Source: an uncultured Gammaproteobacteria bacterium (GTDB lineage: Bacteria > Patescibacteriota > Microgenomatia > UBA10105 > UBA927). Taken from it: a DNA stretch of 64,000 nucleotides. Below, one piece after another: positions 5,630 to 17,628 of this stretch. The stretch covers positions 44,877-108,876 of the forward strand of contig CAYVAR010000001.1 of the NCBI GenBank assembly GCA_964449675.1, read 5' to 3'. Made by a program: the position numbers and the translations under genes. How positions within the stretch are numbered: position 1 is the first letter of the stretch; every line of letters begins with the position of its first letter. The notes beneath the pieces are model-generated. The model was not told where the DNA came from. It searched no databases and saw only the letters and a program-made list of their open reading frames with translations.

Positions 5630-6010
5630 ATATTCGTCATCCCGACCGAAGCGGAGGGATCTTTTTTTAAATGCCTGCAAAGAAACAGTATTACGTTTAT
5701 ATCTTACGTAGCAAATAGGGAGTATTGTACATCGGCATTACAGATAACCTCGTAAAGAGAATCTGGCAACACAAACAGAAATTTGTAAAAGGATTTACTC
5801 AGAAATATAACATTGACCAACTCCTCTACTACGAAATTTTTCAAGATCCACTCACCGCTATTGCTAGAGAAAAACAGATTAAGAAGTGGAGTCGAAAGAA
5901 AAAAGTACTATTAATAATAACTACAAATCCGACATTTCGGGAAATTTTCATTGAAGACATACATTAATAAGTGAGATTCCTCGACTTCGCTCGGAATGAC
6001 AATTAGTATA
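5630..6010. mobile_element. Putative small mobile element: a GIY-YIG nuclease gene bounded by ~28-bp terminal inverted repeats.
   Basis: The left end TTCGTCATCCCGACCGAAGCGGAGGGATC (5632-5660) and the reverse complement of the right end GATTCCTCGACTTCGCTCGGAATGACAA (5978-6005) match at about 22 of 28 positions. Related ORF-less copies occur at 61036-61150 and 63655-63775. Confidence 0.45.
5671..5967 (+). pseudogene. GIY-YIG nuclease family protein (UPF0213/YhbQ-like) interrupted by an in-frame TAG codon.
   Basis: The frame reads MPAKKQYYVYILRSK-TAG(5716-5718)-GVLYIGITDNLVKRIWQH..., so the canonical YVYIL ... LYIG ... GIY-YIG N-terminus is split by a single in-frame amber. The listed ORF 5725..5967 is only the portion after the stop. 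Confidence 0.5.
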
Positions 6011-6023
6011 AGATAGAAGAAGT

Positions 6024-7139
6024 ATGTCAAAACTTACAGATGAAGTTGAAAGTCTTCGAAAAAAACTTACTGAGGTGAAGGTTCCCAAAGAATTAGTCAA
6101 TCGAGTAGAGGGAAATTTAGACGAATTACTCCGGATTGAACACGACATTACCGCACGAGCTCATGTGGAACAGATATTGCGGTATGCAGAGTGGGTGATT
6201 GATCTGCCTTGGAATGTGCGGACGAACGATGTTTTAGATCTGGTGAAAGCACAAGAGATACTCAATAAACATCATTATGGACTTGAACCGGTAAAAGAAA
6301 GAATTTTGGAATACTTAGCAATATTAAAGCTTAATATCGACAAATGGAAAAAAGAGTCAGATGTGAACGTCGCCAGTCGAACTGCGCAGATTGCCAATGA
6401 TGCCAAACTTTCTCACGCAATTTTAGCGCGAAGAGCGCCAATATTATGTCTTGTCGGACTTGTGGGTACTGGAAAGACAACGCTTGCAAAATCGATTGCT
6501 GAGGCGATGGGACGCAGATTTGTGCGTATTCCTTTTGGTGGCATGGCAGATGCCTTGGATCTACGCGGACAGTCACGAGTGCGGCCGGATGCGGAAATCG
6601 GACTTATTCTCAAAGGGCTTCGCTTTGCGGGAAGTAAAAACCCGGTCATCCTTCTTGATGAAATCGATCGTGTCGCAGAACAGGCCAGGGGAGACATAAT
6701 GGGAGTTTTAGTCGAGCTTCTCGATCCCGAACAAAATGCTGCGTTTACTGATCACTATTTGGATTATCCGTTTGATTTATCAGAGGTACTTTTTATCGCA
6801 ACAGCCAATAATACGACAAATATCGCAACAGCCGTCCTTGACAGGCTAGAACCGATCCAAATGCCGTCATATACAGACGAGGAAAAAACAAAAATTGCCC
6901 GGGATTATGTGTTGCCGCAACTTATGAAAGAATCGGGACTCACGAGCGAAAATTTAACCATCGATGCGTCAATTTGGCCAAGGCTTGTTCGTCCGCTCGG
7001 TTACGATGCAGGCATCAGAAGTTTGGAGCGCACGATGAATAGTTTATGCCGTAAGGTAGCCCGGATGATCGTTGACGGCAAAGGAAAAAGCTTCCACGTG
7101 ACGAGTGATAATATAAAAGATTTTATTGATATTTATTAA
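6024..7139 (+). CDS. Lon-like AAA+ ATPase comprising only the helical region and AAA+ module. Both the N-terminal LAN domain and the C-terminal S16 protease domain are absent.
   Basis: The sequence aligns with the Lon middle region: HHYGLEPVKERILEYLAILK matches the Lon DHYGLERVKDRILEYLAV, and Walker A GLVGTGKTT, Walker B ILLDEID, sensor-1 ATAN and arginine-finger LDR are all present. It ends at 7139, 54 bp before rnj, leaving no room for a protease domain. Confidence 0.75.
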   Translation: MSKLTDEVESLRKKLTEVKVPKELVNRVEGNLDELLRIEHDITARAHVEQILRYAEWVIDLPWNVRTNDVLDLVKAQEILNKHHYGLEPVKERILEYLAILKLNIDKWKKESDVNVASRTAQIANDAKLSHAILARRAPILCLVGLVGTGKTTLAKSIAEAMGRRFVRIPFGGMADALDLRGQSRVRPDAEIGLILKGLRFAGSKNPVILLDEIDRVAEQARGDIMGVLVELLDPEQNAAFTDHYLDYPFDLSEVLFIATANNTTNIATAVLDRLEPIQMPSYTDEEKTKIARDYVLPQLMKESGLTSENLTIDASIWPRLVRPLGYDAGIRSLERTMNSLCRKVARMIVDGKGKSFHVTSDNIKDFIDIY

Positions 7140-7192
7140 TACAAATCAAAACTCAAAGGTCAAATGTCAAAACTTTACAATACACAATAATT

Positions 7193-8923
7193 ATGAGATT
7201 TTGGCAAAAATTTAAAAAACAACCAGTGTATCACGGCTCTTCCTCAACCGGTAAAGATACAGTTCGAATTATCCCATTAGGAGGTATAGGAAATGTTACG
7301 AAAAACATGTTTGTCTATGAGTATCGTTATGATGGCAAACTTCGAGATATTTTGATTGTCGATTGCGGCATAGGGTTTCCGGATCCTGAGATGTTTGGAG
7401 TTGATTTAGTCATTCCTGATGTGCGCTATCTTGAAGCAAAAAAAGACCTCATTCGGGGACTCGTATTTACTCACGGACACGACGATCATATCGGAGGTAT
7501 CCCGTATCTTTATAAAAAGTTGGGGAATATACCGATGTGGGGGACTACGCTTACTGCTGCTTTTGCCAATATTAAACTTCGAGAAATCCGATCAACGAAC
7601 AAAGTGACACCAGTGACCTTTGACAAGGTTCTCACGATTGGTCCATTTCGTGTAACATTTGTGCACGTAACTCATTCAGTTCCTGATGCAGCAAACCTCA
7701 TCATTGAAACACCAATAGGAACGTTTTATCACGGAAGCGATTTTAAATTTGACTTTAGTCCGCTGGACGGAAAACTTTCTGAGCTTCACAAAATAACAGA
7801 TGCTGGAAGGCGTGGTGTATTATGTCTTTTGACTGACTCTTTAGGGAGCGAACGGCCTGGGTTTACCCCGTCTGAACAGCGTATTCGTGAAACTATCGAA
7901 CGGGAGATAGAACTTTGTCCCGGTAAACTTCTTTTTACGACCCAATCAAGCAATATTTCACGTATTCAACTTGCTATTGAAATTGCCATTGCTCATGGCA
8001 GACAGATAGCATTTTTGGGTCGAAGCATCGATCAAAATGTCGAAGAGGCAGTCAAGCTCGGCTACATGAAGTTTCGCCGCGAGGCCCTTATCAGCGATCG
8101 AGATTTAAAGCGCTTACCATCGGTCAAACAATTTCTTGTGGTTGCCGGTAGTCAAGGGCAATCGGACTCCGCGCTTTCAAGGATTGCCAATGATAGTCAT
8201 AAATATGTGAGGCTTGTGGAAGGAGATACCGTTGTTTTTTCTGCAGACCCCATACCCGGTCACGAAAATGACGTCAACCGCTTGATTGACCAAATTTACC
8301 GCAAAGGAGCGAGAGTATCCTACTCCGATATCATGGAGGATTTACATGTATCCGGACACGGTAGTCAAGGAGACATGATGCTTATGCTCTCTGCCTTAGG
8401 TCCACGCTATATTTTTCCCATCGGAGGAACCTATAAGCATATGATGCAGTACCGCAGGCTTGCGATGGAGCTCGGGTACAAAAAAAGCGAAATCCTCATT
8501 CCTGAGGATGGACAAGTATTAGAATTTTCTGCTGTAGGTGAGCCAAAGGTGGTCGAAACGATAGAGCTTGAAAATGTGATGATCGATGGCCTAGGAATCG
8601 GCGATGTGGGAAATGTCGTCCTTCGCGATCGGCAAACAATTGCTAAAGAAGGTATCGTTGTCATTGTAGTACCTATAGAAGAATCAACTGGCCGAGTTAC
8701 AGCTGAGCCAGATATTATTTCCCGGGGATTTGTCTACATGAAGGCATCTGGCAGACTCGTTGATCAAGCGAAGCAATTAGTGACGAGGTCGCTTCGACTC
8801 AAAAAGGGGCGCATGATCGATTGGCATTTTGCGAGAAAGCAGGTAGAAGAGAATGTTGGTGTCTTTCTGCGTCGCGAAACCGGCCGCAGCCCCCTCATCG
8901 TTCCTGTAATCGTAGAGGTATGA
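7193..8923 (+). CDS. rnj: Ribonuclease J (metallo-beta-lactamase / beta-CASP family).
   Basis: Contains the THGHDDHIGG motif and the beta-CASP and C-terminal domains. Its length of 576 aa is typical for RNase J. Confidence 0.9.
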   Translation: MRFWQKFKKQPVYHGSSSTGKDTVRIIPLGGIGNVTKNMFVYEYRYDGKLRDILIVDCGIGFPDPEMFGVDLVIPDVRYLEAKKDLIRGLVFTHGHDDHIGGIPYLYKKLGNIPMWGTTLTAAFANIKLREIRSTNKVTPVTFDKVLTIGPFRVTFVHVTHSVPDAANLIIETPIGTFYHGSDFKFDFSPLDGKLSELHKITDAGRRGVLCLLTDSLGSERPGFTPSEQRIRETIEREIELCPGKLLFTTQSSNISRIQLAIEIAIAHGRQIAFLGRSIDQNVEEAVKLGYMKFRREALISDRDLKRLPSVKQFLVVAGSQGQSDSALSRIANDSHKYVRLVEGDTVVFSADPIPGHENDVNRLIDQIYRKGARVSYSDIMEDLHVSGHGSQGDMMLMLSALGPRYIFPIGGTYKHMMQYRRLAMELGYKKSEILIPEDGQVLEFSAVGEPKVVETIELENVMIDGLGIGDVGNVVLRDRQTIAKEGIVVIVVPIEESTGRVTAEPDIISRGFVYMKASGRLVDQAKQLVTRSLRLKKGRMIDWHFARKQVEENVGVFLRRETGRSPLIVPVIVEV

Positions 8924-9032
8924 TACCTATTTAATAGTTATATACGAGCAAAATATTATAGGTCTTGAAAAATATAAACAAAAATGGTATATTATAATTG
9001 TTTAATAAATAGTTAAAAGACAACAACGCCTT

Positions 9033-9092
9033 GATCTTTCTTTAGAAGAAAGATAATTACAACCGGCCAGTCAAAAGGGGCCGGTTTTTTGA
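9033..9092 (+). terminator. Tandem hairpins ending in a T-run; an intrinsic terminator after rnj.
   Basis: ATCTTTCTT-tag-AAGAAAGAT is followed by CCGGCC-agtcaaaagg-GGCCGG and then TTTTTT. Confidence 0.55.
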
Positions 9093-9351
9093 TGCATAAA
9101 AAACCGGCACAAACAGAGCTGGTTTTGTTGACAACAGTAGCAAAGCCGGATGCACGCCAAGCTCCAGAAGCACTGAGAAGCCTGCGCGCATCCGGGCAAA
9201 GGTGCTTTGCTACAGTGCAGCATGTGTGCCCGCGCCCGGGTGCGGGCACATTAACAATCTGGTGTGAAAACAGGTTTTCCTGTTGCCCTTTCGGGAAAGA
9301 ACTTATTCTTTTTCGAATGGGTAACAGGAGACCTAAACAAGGAGACTATGA

Positions 9352-10066
9352 GATGAGTACCTTACGAATGTTTTGGGAACTTCTAAGGCGGACTGACGAT
9401 CGTATCGCCCGCGTGACCTTGCGGCTGCCCAAAAGGCTGCAAGGACTGGAGCTGCGCGACGACCTGACGCTTGCCGTAGCCATCACGAGAAGGATTTACG
9501 TGTATGGCGTTCTCGCGCTTTCGGCCTTCCTCGTGGTCTACGTGGCCTACTGGTTGCTCTTTAGCGGGCCACGGACGAGGCTCTCAGACCCAGCCCTCCA
9601 AACCGAGATCCCTACGGCCATCGCTTCACCGACGCCGCGGGTGATTATCGATCCCTGGAGCGGACATGAGTGGTTCTCAGCCGACGAGGCGCGAAACCTC
9701 AGGACCCAGGAGAACGTTATCAACCTGGCATATCTTGAGGACGGTAGCGCCAAGTACAGCGCAGGCTTTAGCGTAGTATTCACCGGCGAGACTCCTTGGG
9801 AGAATGCGGGCAAGCCCTTCGGCGTGAGCGAGCTGAGTGTCGAAGTTACCTCGGTTGCGCTCACCGCCCACGGTCAGCAATATACCCTGAACGTGTGGCA
9901 GCCGTTTGTGCTTTCCGAAAATTCTCAGGAGATCTACGTCGTTGATGCGACAGGCCAGTTGTGGCGGGCGCCACTGGCCGATCTGAGCCTCGTTCCTTTG
10001 GATCAGGTTATCGGCGACCTCCCGGCCCCGATTGCGCCCAACCCCAACCTCAGTTTTACCTACTGA
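9352..10066 (+). CDS. Hypothetical single-pass membrane protein encoded in the high-GC island.
   Basis: The ATG carries an AAGGAGA RBS (MSTLRMFWELL...), one transmembrane segment is present, and codon usage is GC-rich unlike its flanks. The upstream part of ORF 9089..10066 is treated as leader. Confidence 0.5.
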
Positions 10067-10080
10067 AAGGAAGGTATGAG

Positions 10081-11877
10081 ATGTTATTCACCTACAGTCT
10101 TGCATTCGCTGCGGGAGCGGCTGCTGCTGCAGGCCTGTTCGAGCTGTTCAACGGCCGCTTTAAACACCCGGTGAGCGCCGGATTCATCACGGGCGTCCTC
10201 ACCTTCATCGTCAACGCGGGGATCGTGTACTTCGGCATGCCGCCCTTCACCCACTGGCTCGCGGCCGGCTACCCGATTCTGTTCTTCGTGGATTTGGCTA
10301 TCGCTGCGGTCATCGTGGTCATTGACTCGGCGGTAACGTATGAAGAGCACCGCGCGGATGGTTCCGGCGGTTACGTAGCCGCAGGCACGTTCGTCGTGTT
10401 TCTGGTTGTTTGGGGTATGGTCGCCGCAGTGACCCCTCCCGGGGCATTCTGCGACAATCCCGGCTACCAGCGGATGGTCGCGCTCATAAACGTTGCTGAT
10501 AGCGACGCGGCGTTCCCGGACACCAACTTGGACAGTCTGGTGCGGGTTGCCCCGGAGACGGCTATGCTCAAGGCTAGCCGCGCAATCGGCGGCGACGCCA
10601 ACATCGGCTCCTACCTTGAAGTAAACAACCCTTACCTGCAAAAGGTCCAGGGGCGTTGGGTCTATGTTGTAGACCTTAAGGTAAAGGACTGGCGGGCCTT
10701 CGAAACTAAGGGTGCGGTCGTGCCCGGATATATCGTAGTTTCAGCAACGGATCCGCAAGCCGAGGCAGAATTTCGCACCGGCTATGCCATCCGCTATGCG
10801 CCAGACGCGCGCTGGGATCAGGACCTCGACCGGCACGCGTATCTAGGCTTCCTGTTGGGTTCTCCCTACCGCGTGATGGACTTGCGCGGTATGGAAGTTG
10901 ACGAGGAGTGGAACCCTCACTACACGGGCACACTCCTTCGTCATGAAGTAGGATTCGAAGGCAAGGTCGTGGTCGGGATGCTTGACGTCAATCCCCAATC
11001 CGGCGAGATGGCCATGTACACAGTCGGCGAGGTCCCCGAGTGGATCGACAGGATCTGGCCGCTCGAGCTTGTCAAAAGCTACGCAGGTTGGTGGGGTAGT
11101 TATATAGACCACCGGGCATGCGAGCTTCAAGGGGCTGCAGGTCAGCGCGCGATCGACAACACCAACGACGTCGTTACGAGCGCCGGACTCGAGTTTCAAG
11201 TCACGATGACGTCCGTCGGAACCGACCAGTCCCTAACGGAGATTCTCTACGTCGAGCCTCGGACGGGAATCGCCACTCGCTACAAGCTGACCGGCGCCAC
11301 AATCCAGGCTATCGACAACCTCGTTGATGAAGCCAGCCGGGAGATCACCGCCGAAGGTTACGAGCCAGTTGAATGCGAACTCCAGGTGCTTCTGGGCCGC
11401 CAGGTCTGGTACTGCGTCCTGACGGGCCGGGGCGGGGGCGAGGATCTCTCGAGCGGCTCCTACGCGGGGGTGGCCTTTGTCCAAGTGAAGTTTACCTCGG
11501 ATAACACCAAGGTAATCATCGCCGAAACGCTTGAAGAAGCCTACGCCCAGCTCCAGCGACAGATCGCCACGGAAAGTTCCGACGACCCGACCTTGCGCGA
11601 GGCTCAAGAAAAGATCCAAGTGGAAGGCGTGATCGAGCGCAAAGCCAGCATAGGCCAGGACGGTTTCGACACCACTGGTGGAGGTGCTTTCCTGTTCCTA
11701 ATTAAGGCTGACGACGGCAAGACCTACTACTGCCTGGCGCCGACCGCTAGCTGGAATGCGGCGCTCGCACGAGAAGGAGACCGGGTCACAATCACGGCCT
11801 TTCAGGAGCTTGACAAAAGCTACCTGACGGTGATTGATATCGCCATAGTCGGCGCGCCCGACTTCGATCCCAACTAA
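10081..11877 (+). CDS. Hypothetical polytopic membrane protein (about 4 N-terminal transmembrane segments plus a ~450-aa soluble domain) in the high-GC island.
   Basis: The start MLFTYSLAFAAGAAAAAGLF follows a GAAAGGAAGG RBS. GC-rich codons (GCC, CTG, CGC) run throughout. I recognise no domain. Confidence 0.55.
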   Translation: MLFTYSLAFAAGAAAAAGLFELFNGRFKHPVSAGFITGVLTFIVNAGIVYFGMPPFTHWLAAGYPILFFVDLAIAAVIVVIDSAVTYEEHRADGSGGYVAAGTFVVFLVVWGMVAAVTPPGAFCDNPGYQRMVALINVADSDAAFPDTNLDSLVRVAPETAMLKASRAIGGDANIGSYLEVNNPYLQKVQGRWVYVVDLKVKDWRAFETKGAVVPGYIVVSATDPQAEAEFRTGYAIRYAPDARWDQDLDRHAYLGFLLGSPYRVMDLRGMEVDEEWNPHYTGTLLRHEVGFEGKVVVGMLDVNPQSGEMAMYTVGEVPEWIDRIWPLELVKSYAGWWGSYIDHRACELQGAAGQRAIDNTNDVVTSAGLEFQVTMTSVGTDQSLTEILYVEPRTGIATRYKLTGATIQAIDNLVDEASREITAEGYEPVECELQVLLGRQVWYCVLTGRGGGEDLSSGSYAGVAFVQVKFTSDNTKVIIAETLEEAYAQLQRQIATESSDDPTLREAQEKIQVEGVIERKASIGQDGFDTTGGGAFLFLIKADDGKTYYCLAPTASWNAALAREGDRVTITAFQELDKSYLTVIDIAIVGAPDFDPN

Positions 11878-12240
11878 CGTATTCTCCTGTTACCCGAGGG
11901 TTGACTCTCGGTAGAACTATCACACCAGAGTGGAGGACGGACGATGATCCGATTGTCTGCGCGAATTTTGCGCATACGATTTGATCCATTTTCCGTTCCT
12001 CCATAGCCCTCTTCCGATGATTATCGGGACTGATGAGTCGGTCTTTCTACTATATAGGACTACGACGAAAGAGCTATTTTAAATAATGATTACCATAGAT
12101 TAAAGATATAAATAACGTCGACGACGTATATATTTGTCCGGGACTTGGCTAAACGTCATTTTCATACAATCCACCATTTTTCAGTTTAAACGGTTGAACC
12201 AACCTCCAAATCCCTCTATACTAACTGGTACACCATCTTT

Positions 12241-14394
12241 ATGTTTGGAAGAAAGAAAAAGCGCGCGTATAGGAAGCGCAAATCATTTGGCATCAAGCTT
12301 AAAAAGCAGACTGTCTATACGGTCGGGGCTATATGGTTATGGCTTTTTGCGGGAGCTATAACCCTCGCGTTTTTTGGAGAAGGATCAGTGTTATCTACTC
12401 TTCGCGAAGGACTCTTGCAGCACGTCGGTTGGGTCATGTATGGGCTACCGCCGTTTCTCGTCACCTTAAGTTTTCTCTTTTTTAACGTGAAATCAGATAT
12501 AGGGAAACCAAATGTCCCCTTGGGCTTAGGCGTTCTTCTTCTTTCTCTTATAGGCGTCACGCAAGCGGGAACGTTTGGTGAATTTTTGTGGAATATTGTT
12601 TCAAATAACTCCGCAGCTGAGGTAACAATTTTGGTCTATATCGGTCTTTTTATGGTTGGCTTGATCGTCCTTTTCAACACTTCTCTTGACCGATTTATGA
12701 ATATTATCCTTTCTGCGTTTCAAAAAATGGGTGAGTTGCTTGCAGTAGCCGTAGAAAATATTTTTTCTAAAAAGGAAATCCCGCTTTTTGCAAAAGACAA
12801 ACAACTTAAAATAAAAGGTACAGATGATGAAAAGCTATTAGGAAAGGCACCTATGCCGCTTCCTCCGATACTAGGAAAGTCACAAGCGATGGCTGGTGTG
12901 ACATCGACCAAGTCTGATCTTTCGATACACGCACCGCTTGCAAGTTCAAACGACGCGATATGGGAGTATCCACCGTTGACGCTTCTCTCTGATGGTCCTG
13001 GTCAAAAAGCAGATCGCGGTGACATGAGAAAGAATGCATCCATCATAGAAAAAACCCTTGAAGGATTTGGGATAACGGCAAAAGTAACTGAAGTAAATAC
13101 CGGTCCGGCGGTCACGCAGTACGCACTTGAGATAGCATTAGGTACAAAAGTGTCAAAGATTACATCACTTTCAAGTGACCTTGCGCTTGCTCTTGCTGCT
13201 CCCACCGGTCAAGTGCGCATAGAAGCGCCGATACCCGGACGAAGCTTGGTGGGAATTGAAATTCCAAATAGGGGGCTTGAGTTTGTTACCCTTAAACGGA
13301 TGCTTACTTCCGACGTACTTCGTAAGTCAAAAAGTAAACTCGCTGTCGCATTGGGACTTGATGTGTCTGGGAGTCCACTCATCGCAGATATAGGAAAAAT
13401 GCCTCACGTATTGGTAGCCGGAACTACCGGTAGCGGCAAGTCGGTGCTTGTTAATTCGTGGATTTGTTCGCTACTGTTTCGTACTACACCATCGGAAGTA
13501 CGACTTATCTTGGTTGATCCAAAACGAGTGGAACTCACTGGATACAACGGTATACCGCATCTTTTAACTCCGGTCATCGTTGAACCGGATAAAATTCTTT
13601 CCGCCCTTCGCTGGGCGATGACAGAGATGGAAAATCGCTATAAGCAGTTTGCTGAGGTGGGAGTCCGGAATATCGACGGATTCAATGAACTATCCGGATT
13701 TCAAGCGATGCCCTACATTGTGATCCTTATTGATGAACTCGCTGATCTTATGGCGTATGCGCCAGTTGAAGTAGAAGATGCTATTTGTCGCATAGCGCAA
13801 ATGGCTCGAGCAACGGGGATTCATCTCGTATTGGCAACGCAGCGGCCGTCAGTTGACGTTATCACAGGACTTATTAAAGCCAACGTACCTTCTCGTATAG
13901 CCTTTAATGTATCTTCCATGATTGATTCTCGCGTTATTATCGATATGCCGGGAGCTGAAAAACTCCTCGGTCGCGGAGATATGCTGTATGTCCCGCCAGA
14001 CCAGTCAAAACCAAGTAGAATTCAGGGAACGTTTGTTTCAGAGCAGGAAGTTAATAAAGTCGTAGATTTCCTTAAAGTAAAAAATGTGCCTGTGCAGTAT
14101 ACCGAGGAAGTAACAAAGCAACCGCTTACTGGGTGGAAAAGAGGGCTTGCGGTAAACGCTGGAACTGATGGGAAGGATCCGCTTTTTGAAGACGCACTTC
14201 GGCTTATATGCCAGCATGACAAAGCATCAGCGTCACTTCTTCAACGACGTCTTTCTGTTGGGTATGCGCGTGCTGCACGAATTTTGGATCAGTTGGAAGG
14301 TGCCGGTATTATTGGTCCGGGAGAAGGCAGTAAGCCTCGAGATGTCCTCGTAAAAAACGCGGATGATTATCTTGCCCTACAAGCACAACAGTAG
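12241..14394 (+). CDS. ftsK: DNA translocase FtsK/SpoIIIE.
   Basis: N-terminal transmembrane segments, Walker A VAGTTGSGKSV, LILVDPKRVEL and IDELADLM motifs, and a C-terminal gamma domain (LLQRRLSVGYARAARILDQLE) are all present. Confidence 0.9.
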   Translation: MFGRKKKRAYRKRKSFGIKLKKQTVYTVGAIWLWLFAGAITLAFFGEGSVLSTLREGLLQHVGWVMYGLPPFLVTLSFLFFNVKSDIGKPNVPLGLGVLLLSLIGVTQAGTFGEFLWNIVSNNSAAEVTILVYIGLFMVGLIVLFNTSLDRFMNIILSAFQKMGELLAVAVENIFSKKEIPLFAKDKQLKIKGTDDEKLLGKAPMPLPPILGKSQAMAGVTSTKSDLSIHAPLASSNDAIWEYPPLTLLSDGPGQKADRGDMRKNASIIEKTLEGFGITAKVTEVNTGPAVTQYALEIALGTKVSKITSLSSDLALALAAPTGQVRIEAPIPGRSLVGIEIPNRGLEFVTLKRMLTSDVLRKSKSKLAVALGLDVSGSPLIADIGKMPHVLVAGTTGSGKSVLVNSWICSLLFRTTPSEVRLILVDPKRVELTGYNGIPHLLTPVIVEPDKILSALRWAMTEMENRYKQFAEVGVRNIDGFNELSGFQAMPYIVILIDELADLMAYAPVEVEDAICRIAQMARATGIHLVLATQRPSVDVITGLIKANVPSRIAFNVSSMIDSRVIIDMPGAEKLLGRGDMLYVPPDQSKPSRIQGTFVSEQEVNKVVDFLKVKNVPVQYTEEVTKQPLTGWKRGLAVNAGTDGKDPLFEDALRLICQHDKASASLLQRRLSVGYARAARILDQLEGAGIIGPGEGSKPRDVLVKNADDYLALQAQQ

Positions 14395-14496
14395 CTAAAT
14401 AGCAAGGCCAGTTACTCCGTTACTTAGAAAGAGCAAATTCTTTTTTTATTTTTTTCCTAATAACTAAGTAACAAAGTAACCAAGTAACCTTTTTTC

Positions 14497-15129
14497 ATGA
14501 AAACAGTAGGATCTATACTCAAGGAAGCTCGAATTGGGAAAGAAATAACACTTGAACAAGTAGAAAAAGCGACGAAAATTCGTGAGAAATTTTTGCATGC
14601 CATAGAAGCAGATGATTATACAACGCTTCCATCTCCTTCCTATGCGAAAGGATTTGTAAAAAACTATAGTGCTTTTTTAGGACTTGATATTGAATGGGTA
14701 CTCGCGTTTTTCCGCCGACAAACCAGAGAGCCACCTCGGTCTACGCTTTTACCCAAACAACAGGACGAGTTGGAAAAACCGTTCTTCCGCCTTACACCGA
14801 ATCGATTCCTCTTGCTATTTGTGGCGAGTTTGGTACTTATTTTTTTGTCGTATCTAGGACTCCAATATCGTAAATTAACATCACCTCCGTTCCTTTCTAT
14901 CGAATCTCCAAAAGAACAAATCGTAAAAGATAAACGTGTAGATATTCTTGGAAAAACAGATACAGATGCAACAGTGACTATAAATGATGTTTCAGTATTC
15001 GTACGAAGTGATGGACGATTTTTCGATCAAAGAATTCTTAACGAAGGAATAAATAAAATTGTTATTACTTCGACGAGTCGGTACGGAAAAACAACGACAG
15101 CAACTCGAGAGGTAACGTACAAACCTTAG
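14497..15129 (+). CDS. rodZ: RodZ-like cytoskeletal protein with an XRE-type HTH and one transmembrane segment.
   Basis: The N-terminus GSILKEARIGKEITLEQVEKATKIREKFLHAIEADDYTTLPSPSYAKGFVKNYSAFLGLD follows the RodZ HTH pattern, and a single transmembrane segment follows it. Confidence 0.6.
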   Translation: MKTVGSILKEARIGKEITLEQVEKATKIREKFLHAIEADDYTTLPSPSYAKGFVKNYSAFLGLDIEWVLAFFRRQTREPPRSTLLPKQQDELEKPFFRLTPNRFLLLFVASLVLIFLSYLGLQYRKLTSPPFLSIESPKEQIVKDKRVDILGKTDTDATVTINDVSVFVRSDGRFFDQRILNEGINKIVITSTSRYGKTTTATREVTYKP

Positions 15130-15309
15130 TCATTGACAGATATCTGGTTTTTGGAGATACTAGTGAAGTAAATTCTAAGCACTAAATACTAAATCTGAAA
15201 CAAATTTAAAATAAAAATATTCAATTTTTAAACTTTTTCTATTAGTATTTTGAATCTATAATTTATTTAGAAACTAGATATTAGTGTTTAGAATTTTATA
15301 ATCTGCCTC

Positions 15310-15570
15310 ATGGAACCTATACAGCTAACTATTATTGTAATAAGCATTATCCTCACAACTCTATTTGTTTTCCTCGGCATTCAAGTGTGGCATATCCTCA
15401 AAGAAATGAAATTATCTCTTGAGAAAGTCAACAAGATGCTTGATGATGCTGGAAAAGTCACAGGAACGGTGAGTACGGGAGTAAGCGGTATGGCGGGACT
15501 TGTGGAAGGACTTAAAACTGGACTATCAGTGTTTAGTGCATTTCGAAAAAAGCACGAAGACTATGAATGA
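15310..15570 (+). CDS. Small membrane protein of 86 aa, hypothetical.
   Basis: Listed ORF with an N-terminal transmembrane helix and no known motif. Confidence 0.35.
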   Translation: MEPIQLTIIVISIILTTLFVFLGIQVWHILKEMKLSLEKVNKMLDDAGKVTGTVSTGVSGMAGLVEGLKTGLSVFSAFRKKHEDYE

Positions 15571-15955
15571 TGATCATCAGGGGCGAGACTTCAAATTCTG
15601 GGTAGGTTTTTTTGTCGGGGGTCTGCTTGGGGCGATCGTTTTATTTTTTCTGGGAACAAAGGAAGGAAAAAAAACGGGAAGATTTTTGGAGGATAAAGGA
15701 AAAGATCTAATCGATGAACTTCAGGATCGTTTGGGTGAGCTTGAGAAGAAAGGCAAAGAACTTGCCAAGCAAGGAGAAGAGATCAAAGAGGAAGTTTTAG
15801 AAACGCTTGATGATAAAAAGGAACACCTAACAGAAAAAGCGACGGAAAAATTAGATGAAGCGCTTGAGCATATAGAAAAGCTGCAAGAACACGGCCGCCA
15901 GACGACGATAGCCATAAGAAAACGCCTCTTCAAAAACCTTCCAAAGAGACCATAA
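15563..15955 (+). CDS. Hypothetical membrane-anchored coiled-coil protein.
   Basis: The in-frame ATG (MNDDHQG...) is followed by a transmembrane segment (FWVGFFVGGLLGAIVLFFLG) and then a charged coiled-coil region. Confidence 0.4.
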   Translation: MNDDHQGRDFKFWVGFFVGGLLGAIVLFFLGTKEGKKTGRFLEDKGKDLIDELQDRLGELEKKGKELAKQGEEIKEEVLETLDDKKEHLTEKATEKLDEALEHIEKLQEHGRQTTIAIRKRLFKNLPKRP

Positions 15956-15963
15956 AAAATAAT

Positions 15964-17628
15964 CTATTGAGATTTATATTGCAATGTACCAGACTCAAGT
16001 GCATTAAGAAACTGGGAGGCTTGAGTAAATGATGGATCTATAGAAAGGGCTTTTTCGAATGCTTCTTTAGCATTTTCTTTATCATCTAGTGCAACGAAAA
16101 TAACGCCGAGATTAGTGTAAAGAGCGGCATTGTTTGAATCAATGGTCAAACCTACTTTGATATGTTTCAATGCTTCAGTTAGATCCTTTCTTTCATAGAG
16201 AAGCGCTGCGATATTTTGATGCGATTGCCAAAGCGTCGGATTATAATCCAAAGCTTTTTGATATTGGCTGATGGCTTCGTCGTTTTTCCCAAGACTTCGA
16301 TAGGCATTGCCGAGATTGTGATAGGCGTCAGCGTAGTTTGGTTTGAGGGCAATTGCTTCTTGAAATTCTTGTGCAGCTCGCGTGTGATCGCCGCGACGCC
16401 CATAGACATCACCGAGGTTGTTATGCGTATTGGGACTACTTGGCGAGGTTTTACCGGTCGCTATCCAGAGCGTATCTTCATTTTTCCAGTCGTTATTTCG
16501 GACAACAGTTCGAATGCTTAAAGCAATAATTATGAGAATCCAAAGTATTATAAAGATTTGTCTCATATGATGTTTTCGAAATCCATAATCAGCACAAAGA
16601 GCAGTAAGTACACATAGTCCTGCAACGCTTAGATACGCATATCGTTCGGCTACGACCCACGTGAGCGGTAATGGGATGAGTGTCGGTATAAGCGGGATGA
16701 TAAAGAATCCAAACCAGAAAGAAATTTTTCTATTGATCTTAAAGAAAACTATCGCACACAAAAAGTAACCGAGTACCAAAAGTGCGCGAAGAATGAAAAT
16801 AAATTTCGTAAAAGACAATTCTGACTGATAGATAGTTAATTTGTTCGGCCATGCAAAAAGCAAGAGGTAGGAGGAAAGCGCTATAGGGATACGGATCAGT
16901 GGATTATCTATGGTGATTTGCGTTTGCGTTTCTTGGGTAAGATACGAAAGCCTGTTAGATAAGCGACCAGAGTAAAACCAGCCGAACATATACAAAAGAC
17001 TTAAAACAAAAAATATTGTTACAATGCGCCAGTTTTTTTTTACATTACCAGAGCAAATTTCATAGAGAGGGAAAACGAGAAAGAGTATGCTTGCTTTTTC
17101 TGAAGAAAGAAGCGATAGAAGAAACGATACAATTGACAGAACCAGAATTATTTTTTTTGTTTTTGCGACCAGATAAAGATAGAAAGACAGTAAGAAAAAA
17201 AAGCTATATTGTGCATAGACGCCACCAGAAATCCAGGTGATTGTTTCCACCAAAAGCGGGTGGACGGCAAAAAGCGTTCCAGAGAGAATGCCGATACGCT
17301 TCGAAAATATTTTTTGTGCAATTCCATAAACGAGAATGGTGTTTCCTATGTGGAAGGCGATGTTGCCAAGTCTATAAAAGATTGGTTGGAACCCAAAGAA
17401 TTTATAAGTAATAAGGTAAACCAAGAGACGAAAGGACGTAAGAAATTTACTAAATACAAATGCAAGGTTCCATGATGGTGCATTGATGAGAATACCTCTA
17501 TCGTCAGATACAAACCCATTGAATAAACTATTACTATAGGCGATGCTAATAAGAGTGATGATCGATAAAATATATAGCAAGTTTTTTTTTAACAATTGAG
17601 AATTCAAAAACGAGAGAAGTTTACCCAT
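15964..17628 (-). CDS. Polytopic membrane protein with a C-terminal TPR-repeat domain, resembling a glycosyltransferase family 39/83.
   Basis: About 10 transmembrane helices are followed by several TPR repeats (AYHNLGNAYRSLGKNDEAISQYQKALDYNP and others). Confidence 0.55.
   Translation of the reverse strand: MGKLLSFLNSQLLKKNLLYILSIITLISIAYSNSLFNGFVSDDRGILINAPSWNLAFVFSKFLTSFRLLVYLITYKFFGFQPIFYRLGNIAFHIGNTILVYGIAQKIFSKRIGILSGTLFAVHPLLVETITWISGGVYAQYSFFFLLSFYLYLVAKTKKIILVLSIVSFLLSLLSSEKASILFLVFPLYEICSGNVKKNWRIVTIFFVLSLLYMFGWFYSGRLSNRLSYLTQETQTQITIDNPLIRIPIALSSYLLLFAWPNKLTIYQSELSFTKFIFILRALLVLGYFLCAIVFFKINRKISFWFGFFIIPLIPTLIPLPLTWVVAERYAYLSVAGLCVLTALCADYGFRKHHMRQIFIILWILIIIALSIRTVVRNNDWKNEDTLWIATGKTSPSSPNTHNNLGDVYGRRGDHTRAAQEFQEAIALKPNYADAYHNLGNAYRSLGKNDEAISQYQKALDYNPTLWQSHQNIAALLYERKDLTEALKHIKVGLTIDSNNAALYTNLGVIFVALDDKENAKEAFEKALSIDPSFTQASQFLNALESGTLQYKSQ

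Follow-up and report, generated by a model that had tools for sequence, protein, structure and literature searches.

Hammerhead ribozymes of bacteria are found at the flanks of genes or short gene blocks, in prophages as well as in other mobile DNA, and a role in processing long transcripts to mRNAs of gene length has been proposed for them (PMC3088659); what links hammerhead and twister ribozymes to particular genes of bacteria is an open question (PMC6765202). Here, a stretch of 64 kb from a Candidatus Gottesmanbacteria genome (referred to as the window; all coordinates are positions in it unless a related locus or contig, designated by an L-number, is named) was analyzed with respect to an island rich in guanine and cytosine (GC) between the genes rnj and ftsK. 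The conserved unit of this island (approximately 9020-12077; about 3.05 kb) contains two open reading frames (ORFs), ORF1 and ORF2, has RNA elements at both ends, and was found in at least three genomic contexts. It is probably a self-contained, horizontally spread cassette, the mRNA 3' end of which would be made by a type III hammerhead ribozyme predicted at its right end.

Like the hammerheads reported by Perreault et al. in 2011 (PMC3088659), the motif has a canonical core and lies in an intergenic region, on the coding strand and at the edge of an acquired gene block. Unlike them, it is a single 3' ribozyme and not a cluster, belongs to type III, has a bulged stem II of 30 nucleotides (nt), and is directly preceded by a 70-nt hairpin; in addition, a conserved leader is complementary to the trailer, phage and integrase genes are lacking, and the host belongs to the Candidate Phyla Radiation (CPR; Patescibacteria). 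In the literature searched, no paper naming both hammerhead ribozymes and Patescibacteria was found. Retrozymes and viroid-like circular RNAs (PMC5680766) share with this locus a type III hammerhead at the boundary of a mobile unit and ends that are able to pair, but they are non-coding, eukaryotic or viral, and carry the ribozyme in both terminal repeats or once per polarity, whereas here one ribozyme was found in 64 kb, together with two long ORFs in a chromosomal DNA copy. Assignment to this class was rejected on the basis of the single hammerhead, the two long ORFs, and the absence of terminal direct repeats and of an end overlap in the related contig L007.

A hammerhead motif at the 3' end of the cassette

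Alignment of the trailers revealed an invariant CUGAUGAGUC...GACGAAAG pattern, and the region 12003-12077, when read against the hammerhead consensus, gave a complete type III motif, in which stem III is open and stems I and II are capped. Stem III is formed by 12003-12010 and 12070-12077 (7 of 8 pairs), with U12010 at position U16.1 paired to A12070 (A15.1-U16.1) and C12011 at position H17, and the cleavage site is predicted at C12011/U12012. Stem I (12012-12029) has 7 bp and a GAUU loop, and stem II (12037-12066) has 4+3 bp with a UA bulge. The core, consisting of CUGAUGA (12030-12036) and GAAA (12067-12070), is identical in L007, L101, and L043. A strict descriptor applied to both strands of the window yielded exactly 1 match, compared with 0.13 expected from shuffles. 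Next to this, a covariance model was built from the L043 and L007 sites only, with the window sequence excluded, and searched with filters off; the only significant match in the 64 kb was 11996-12077 (42.1 bits, E = 6e-9), the next best having E = 1.5. No second ribozyme was detected at the 5' end of the cassette by this model at full sensitivity.

The motif recurred in related loci. In L043, which comes from a high-GC organism and encodes an ORF2 homologue of 26% identity, an 88-nt hairpin lies downstream of the ORF1-ORF2 pair, followed by a compact type III hammerhead (L043:6907-7052; AGCACUC/CAUGA...CUGAUGAGUCGUAAACGACGAAAGUGC) located 176 nt after the stop codon. The minimum free energy (MFE) fold of this site is exactly the hammerhead, and its best Rfam match was Hammerhead_3 (22.1 bits, E = 0.016). 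A very stable long hairpin directly precedes the ribozyme in both L043 and the window. In L101, a third CPR lineage (ORF2 48% identical) with homologous trailer and leader, the ribozyme was found at the same place (6430-6501; 24.3 bits, E = 2e-4). Among the window, L007, and L101, stem I was 100% paired, and in 3 of its 7 pairs both bases had changed; stem II was 94% paired, its fourth pair being G-C in the window and C-G in L007. The long hairpin and the ribozyme together contained 10 doubly changed pairs, a count reached by 1 of 500 shuffles (slid controls, 1-4).

Several results weigh against a functional ribozyme. The window hammerhead gave no Rfam match even at E <= 10, without reaching the gathering score of RF00008, probably because of a 22-nt insertion in stem II, and the 22.1 bits of L043 were also below the gathering score of 48.5. 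Stem III of the window contains a C-A mismatch, and the comparison covers no more than 3-4 sequences. Relaxed descriptor scans of approximately 90 loci gave no credible hammerhead beyond the window lineage, L101, and L043. Finally, the Woesebacteria relatives (L001) end in an ordinary intrinsic terminator with no ribozyme, indicating that the ribozyme is not essential to the module. Considering the descriptor, the covariance model, and the compensatory changes together with these points, the hammerhead motif is very probably real. A weak hammerhead-like match (19.2 bits, E = 0.09) was also noticed at L079:4602-4668, where it precedes an AT-rich, distant homologue of ORF2; with an unconvincing stem II, it probably arose by chance.

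The structured ends and a candidate mRNA processing scheme

The 5' leader was resolved by RNAalifold into the hairpins H1 (9134-9216), H2 (9217-9265), and H3 (9275-9337), with compensatory changes in 6 pairs; H2 and H3 were also present in L101, and an Rfam search of the leader returned no family. Folding z-scores were -4.1 to -6.1 over 9000-9399 (-4 to -6 for the leader), -4.5 to -4.9 for the trailer, approximately -1 for the coding sequence, and approximately 0 for host genes such as rnj and ftsK, which agrees with the hairpin-rich leader described in an earlier sequence-only reading of this DNA. The leader was nearly invariant among the window, L013, and L007 and more conserved than the coding sequence, of which the nucleotide identity to the window was 79% in L013 and 72-74% in L007. 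That reading had overlooked this conservation, as well as the leader-trailer complementarity, the 3' hammerhead, and the large family to which the gene pair belongs.

Two nested inverted repeats connect the leader with the trailer. The first (9319-9331 with 11883-11895) was paired at 13/13 positions in the window, 13/13 in L007, and 11/13 in L101, and the second (9255-9267 with 11920-11932) at 12/13, 12/13, and 11/13, respectively, with one compensatory change from C-G to U-A. Two observations speak against a long-range duplex: its energy is unexceptional in the window, being matched by 35 of 300 shuffles, and repeat 1 competes with the local hairpin H3, the MFE structure of the joined ends showing repeat 2 only. 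Pairing of the leader with the trailer is plausible but unproven. The repeats lie inside the limits of conservation and not at them, and the candidate of transposon terminal inverted repeats was rejected; an integron cassette (attC) was also rejected, the trailer hairpin having no R''/R' core sites as judged by eye.

These results bear on whether the locus is an ordinary horizontally acquired island, in which the two genes would be the sole functional content, and the hammerhead-like sequence and the complementarity would be coincidental or non-functional. The lack of an Rfam hammerhead match for the window, the absence of the ribozyme from most loci of the family, including L001 with its normal terminator, and the unexceptional duplex energy would all fit such an island. 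It was considered unlikely, however, in view of the single strict match placed within a conserved trailer, the E value of the covariance model, the motif at the same position in L007, L101, and L043 with invariant core and compensatory stem changes, and the non-coding ends that are more conserved than the coding sequence between them.

In the reading preferred here, namely a cassette with a ribozyme-made 3' end, the transcript would start with a leader of approximately 200 nt formed by three stable hairpins and end with the long hairpin followed by the hammerhead. Self-cleavage in vivo would take place after C12011 and leave a 3' end with a 2',3'-cyclic phosphate, nine nt past the very stable hairpin. 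The cleavage would detach the cassette mRNA from transcription of the downstream region of the essential gene ftsK, the hairpin-protected 3' end may stabilize this mRNA, and the two nested leader-trailer helices could bring its processed ends together. The translationally close-packed ORF1 and ORF2 would encode a pair of envelope proteins, in which ORF2 contributes an extracytoplasmic PepSY-like beta-rich domain and an OB fold. For the part of the ribozyme in mRNA 3'-end formation, the chances appear evenly balanced.

Type III hammerheads keep the ribozyme body on the fragment downstream of the cut. This property, together with the lack of a strong terminator between 12077 and ftsK, would also suit a hammerhead that serves the downstream ftsK, either by freeing the ftsK transcript from read-through or by providing a 5'-OH leader that alters the decay of ftsK mRNA. 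Such a function is unlikely, since the insertion left ftsK with a promoter of its own on the downstream side and since the ribozyme also accompanies the cassette in L101 and L043, with different, convergent genes downstream.

The origin of the transcript is less clearly marked. A sigma-70-like promoter match was found at 8965-8993 (TTGAAA-17-TATATT with TG), but its assignment is uncertain because terminator-like hairpins lie between this best match and the leader, which also counts against the proposed transcript. Homology between the window and L013 was clear only from approximately 9022 and includes the hairpin with U6 at 9063-9090. The region 9063-9129 can form three mutually exclusive hairpins, that is, 9063-9090 with U6, an 11-bp palindrome, and 9104-9129 with a U-run, the alternative pairing being a perfect palindrome (GCCGGUUUUUU/AAAAAACCGGC; 9080-9090/9098-9108). 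Of these hairpins, L013 carries the first alone and L007 the last alone, and none was found in L101. In its layout, 9063-9129 recalls an attenuator placed after the promoter match at 8965-8993, but the hairpins are not conserved as a set. The hairpin with U6, which had been taken for the rnj terminator at approximately 9090, turned out not to be the ancestral one: it is missing from relatives without the island and accompanies the island in L013, where rnj is absent.

Insertion, genomic contexts, and composition

The ancestral arrangement was sought in the closest RNase J relatives. In L098, L099, and L100 (RNase J 87% identical), rnj and ftsK are separated by 52 nt with no island, and this spacer contains the promoter TTGATC-17-TATACT, the counterpart of which in the window (TTGAAC-17-TATACT) is located just upstream of ftsK. 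The empty site and the retained ftsK promoter indicate that 8924-12193 (3.27 kb) was inserted. The cassette is almost certainly foreign to the rnj-ftsK locus, judging from this comparison. In L097 (RNase J 92% identical), a different insert was found at the rnj 3' flank (L097:8733-10560), containing a 305-aa ORF and an IS200/IS605 Y1 transposase; accordingly, the rnj 3' flank seems to be a recurrent landing site or insertion hot spot. The L097 insert is bounded by hairpins (TAGCCTTGCAAGG...), and a degenerate second rnj 3' end lies at approximately 10509-10560.

No recombinase, integrase, or transposase was found in the island and no clear direct repeats at its ends, where only weak AT-rich similarities were seen, and no tRNA genes were found within 6000-16000. 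Close to the left limit of the island, TTTAGAAGAAAGATAA (9041-9056) is similar to the opening codons of ftsK, TTTGGAAGAAAGAAAA (12244-12259), with 14 of 16 positions shared, and the AT-rich region 8924-8975 aligns loosely with the ancestral rnj-ftsK spacer (L098:7052-7125). A target duplication that has degenerated could account for these similarities, as could chance, the DNA being AT-rich.

The sequence-only reading had offered an assembly chimera as one explanation, in which a high-GC fragment was misjoined into a low-GC contig during assembly or binning. The sharp step in composition and the metagenomic source of the genome would suit this explanation. However, five Logan contigs from other sequencing runs were 100% identical to the window, and three of them cross junctions at 100%: L008 covers 8750-12342 with both junctions, and the left junction is also spanned by L010 (8465-10981) and L012 (8683-10075). 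No break separates the insert from its AT-rich flanks or from the host ftsK promoter, islands related to it are surrounded by low-GC DNA in other samples (L013, with a flank GC of 0.41, L101, L001, and L005), and the close homologues all come from CPR genomes. Consistent with these results, a protein identical to ORF2 is annotated in an NCBI metagenome-assembled genome of Candidatus Gottesmanbacteria. A chimera was rejected as scarcely credible.

The cassette has the hallmarks of compositional genomic islands, namely a sharp break in GC content and in GC at third codon positions (GC3), absence from the site in close relatives, and intergenic insertion. The GC content was 0.579 for 9090-12035 and 0.424 for the rest of the window, and in 300-nt windows it rose from 0.38 (8850-9149) to 0.53-0.62 (9150-11999) and returned to 0.39 (12000-12299). 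Outside the island, all 1-kb bins of the window were at or below 0.475; the lowest-GC stretch noticed (0.27-0.28) was 15000-15450, just downstream of a rodZ-like gene. The excess resides mainly at synonymous sites: GC3 was 0.702 for ORF1 and 0.713 for ORF2, compared with 0.39 for a lon-like gene, 0.40 for rnj, 0.39 for ftsK, and 0.28 for the rodZ-like gene, and GC at the first and second codon positions was raised by only about 0.05. Both the sharply bounded high-GC island and its GC-rich codon usage, as originally described, were thus borne out, and the island is unique within the window. Of the original limits, 9090-11890, the GC step was reproduced, but the right end was not, since the GC-rich conserved part reaches approximately 12077 including the structured trailer, and the DNA inserted relative to the relatives is larger, with AT-rich flanks included. 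The features of the locus are listed in Table 1.

Table 1. Positions of the island, its flanks, and the predicted RNA elements in the window
Feature	Position	Strand	Remarks
AT-rich DNA between rnj stop codon and conserved element	8924-9019	no strand	Missing from the empty site of relatives (L098)
Left end of conserved element	9020-9131	+	Hairpins 9033-9053, 9063-9090 with U6, and 9104-9129 with U-run
Structured 5' leader, three hairpins	9134-9337	+	Alignments, compensatory pairs, z-scores; Rfam negative
ORF1, 237 aa, single-pass membrane protein	9353-10066	+	Conserved upstream partner of ORF2
ORF2, 598 aa, four transmembrane segments, beta-rich domain, and C-terminal OB fold	10081-11877	+	
Structured 3' trailer with leader-complementary segments and long hairpin (11933-12002)	11878-12002	+	
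Type III hammerhead ribozyme (predicted)	12003-12077	+	Descriptor, covariance model, alignment
AT-rich DNA between ribozyme and ftsK promoter	12078-12193	no strand	Missing from the empty site
Host ftsK promoter, TTGAAC-17-TATACT	12194-12222	+	Corresponds to TTGATC-17-TATACT of the L098 empty site

Unlike typical genomic islands, the cassette exceeds its host by 17 GC points, has no integrase, tRNA, or direct repeats, and keeps a GC3 of approximately 0.7 in copies whose synonymous divergence is nearly saturated. The gene of the ORF2 family is usually richer in GC than its flanks (median, +3.5 points), the window being the extreme case, and every copy of the cassette in the CPR clade is richer in GC than its host. 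At third codon positions, the window copy was 53% identical to L013 and 48% to L007, which is near saturation, and GC3 nevertheless was 0.71 in the window, 0.73 in L013, and 0.64 in L007. These values are at odds with one transfer and subsequent amelioration. Of the previously suggested recent acquisition from a high-GC donor, the foreign nature of the DNA was upheld by the empty site and the composition, but its recent origin from such a donor is questionable in view of the GC3 of the diverged copies. The high GC content looks like a lasting trait of the element lineage, or else like the outcome of repeated transfers, and not like the fading mark of a single one. Either a GC-rich reservoir would have donated the cassette recently and more than once, or selection would be holding GC3 high, possibly for mRNA structure, given the modestly negative z-scores of the coding sequence.

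The surroundings of the cassette differ among its relatives. The L013 island (79% identical at the nucleotide level) has a FemAB-like gene and a coiled-coil gene, not rnj, at its left flank. In L101 (402-3500), the cassette is divergent beside a type IV pilus cluster with a prepilin peptidase and several N-methyl pilins. In L001 (1167-3305), it lies near a VirD4/TraG-like coupling ATPase; the neighbors in L101 and L001 are surface or DNA-transfer machineries, with no consistent neighbor. L007 is a contig of 3030 nt, identical in two samples, which starts within approximately 20 nt of the left limit of the conserved element and stops 6 nt short of the right-hand limit of the ribozyme; no terminal overlap indicative of circularity was found in it. 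A search of 2.9 million viral contigs detected neither an ORF2 relative nor the leader motif, and a scan of a genome collection returned only an already known Saccharibacteria locus.

Some of these features could point to a mobile element with an RNA stage, in which hammerhead cleavage, end pairing, and ligation would give a unit-length, possibly circular RNA. The hammerhead stands at the very end of the conserved element, three lineages share the leader-trailer complementarity, both ends of L007 fall at the limits of the element, and joining the end of this contig to its start would recreate GAAAG/AGC as in the window; the different genomic contexts and a GC3 that is decoupled from the host despite synonymous turnover would also agree with such a stage. 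Conversely, the element has one ribozyme only, no flanking direct repeats, and no encoded reverse transcriptase, the ends of L007 do not overlap, the AGC coincidence extends over only 3 nt, and nothing turned up in the viral contigs. For bacterial hammerhead clusters, no circular or spliced products were detected when Perreault et al. searched for them (PMC3088659). An RNA stage, after which the RNA would return to DNA by copying or serve as a circular mRNA in the manner of retrozymes and viroid-like agents, is very improbable. The prospect is no better for a reading in which the cassette represents a novel type of mobile unit in bacteria, with its identity defined by RNA: the terminal hammerhead would trim the transcript, the conserved pairing of the ends would close it, and ligation would possibly yield a circular mRNA or a transposition intermediate. 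If true, such a unit would explain why the limits coincide with RNA elements, why the contexts are unrelated without a recombinase, and why the GC content is decoupled from the hosts. The best reading of the contexts and composition remains that the cassette spread horizontally among CPR bacteria.

The ORF1-ORF2 gene pair and its significance

Both ORFs of the island were present as described before, except that the start of ORF1 is at 9353, one base from the 9352 given earlier. The transmembrane counts of one for ORF1 and four for ORF2 were confirmed by hydropathy and a structure model. The segment of ORF1 comprises residues 47-73 and is followed by an extracytoplasmic C-terminal domain, and those of ORF2 comprise residues 2-20, 30-53, 59-88, and 95-124, followed by a beta-rich domain with four conserved Cys residues and the C-terminal OB fold. 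Scans of both proteins against Pfam, NCBIfam, PHROG, and PADLOC gave no match, in keeping with the earlier description of a two-gene membrane module with no recognized domain. ORF2 had no Pfam match at E <= 1, PepSY (PF03413) included, and a profile search against PDB sequences returned nothing meaningful. Two distant ORF2 homologues, however, exceeded the Pfam PepSY cut-off of 24 (P0045, 29.1 bits; P0040, 26 bits).

By word-index search, ORF2 had 14 relatives and ORF1 had 5, the close ones all in CPR genomes or short metagenome contigs, and an exhaustive profile search with ORF2 yielded 2015 cluster representatives, 898 of them below 1e-30; most ORF2 homologues tested had no match to a curated model. 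In 41 loci, a hidden Markov model of ORF1 detected a homologue immediately ahead of that of ORF2, among them loci with an ORF2 identity of only 24-29%. No conserved neighbor other than ORF1 was found at the loci of the ORF2 family. As judged by homology and gene order, ORF1-ORF2 is a stand-alone two-gene envelope module across many bacterial lineages. Two other labels did not hold. CvpA/Colicin V is the source label of one Oscillospiraceae homologue (P0165) and was rejected, neither P0165 nor ORF2 having a Pfam or NCBIfam match to it, and for an anti-phage defense or phage gene, no PADLOC or PHROG match and no ORF2 relative in viral contigs were found.

The protein pair resembles PepSY membrane proteins (YpeB-like; PF03413) and membrane-anchored OB/TOBE-fold proteins in having an N-terminal anchor, alpha/beta repeats, and a C-terminal OB fold outside the membrane. 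It differs from PepSY proteins in that ORF2 has no Pfam match and a four-segment anchor, and in its obligatory single-pass partner ORF1, which is not part of known PepSY systems. PepSY proteins are thought to control extracellular hydrolases. By analogy alone, our best guess is that the two proteins form a heteromeric complex at the surface, with a ligand or glycan as its binding partner or an extracellular hydrolase under its control; this guess is weakened in that the OB fold is the only structurally recognized part and that the structure model of ORF1 was unusable.

Two further observations concern the gene pair. The starts of both ORFs (9339-9355 and 10067-10083) share the context AAGGAGNNUAUGAGAUG (14 of 17 positions identical), with an out-of-frame AUG 5 bases ahead of each real start, which at ORF1 opens a two-codon mini-ORF (AUG AGA UGA) overlapping the start; the shared context is not conserved in L013 and L007. 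In the Woesebacteria contig L003 (2971-4770), the pair is followed by a 92-aa ORF and a 599-aa ORF, all within a GC-elevated stretch, and the 599-aa ORF might be an ORF2 paralogue.

In summary, the locus records a hammerhead motif in a CPR genome, and its gene pair defines a large two-gene envelope family, with approximately 2,000 representatives, for annotation. It also presents an anomaly of composition, in that GC3 stays near 0.7 in hosts near 0.4 despite synonymous turnover. The natural variants of the cassette form a compact case in which a ribozyme after a stabilizing hairpin can be set against an ordinary terminator, and these variants suggest that mRNA 3' ends made by a ribozyme may take the place of termination.

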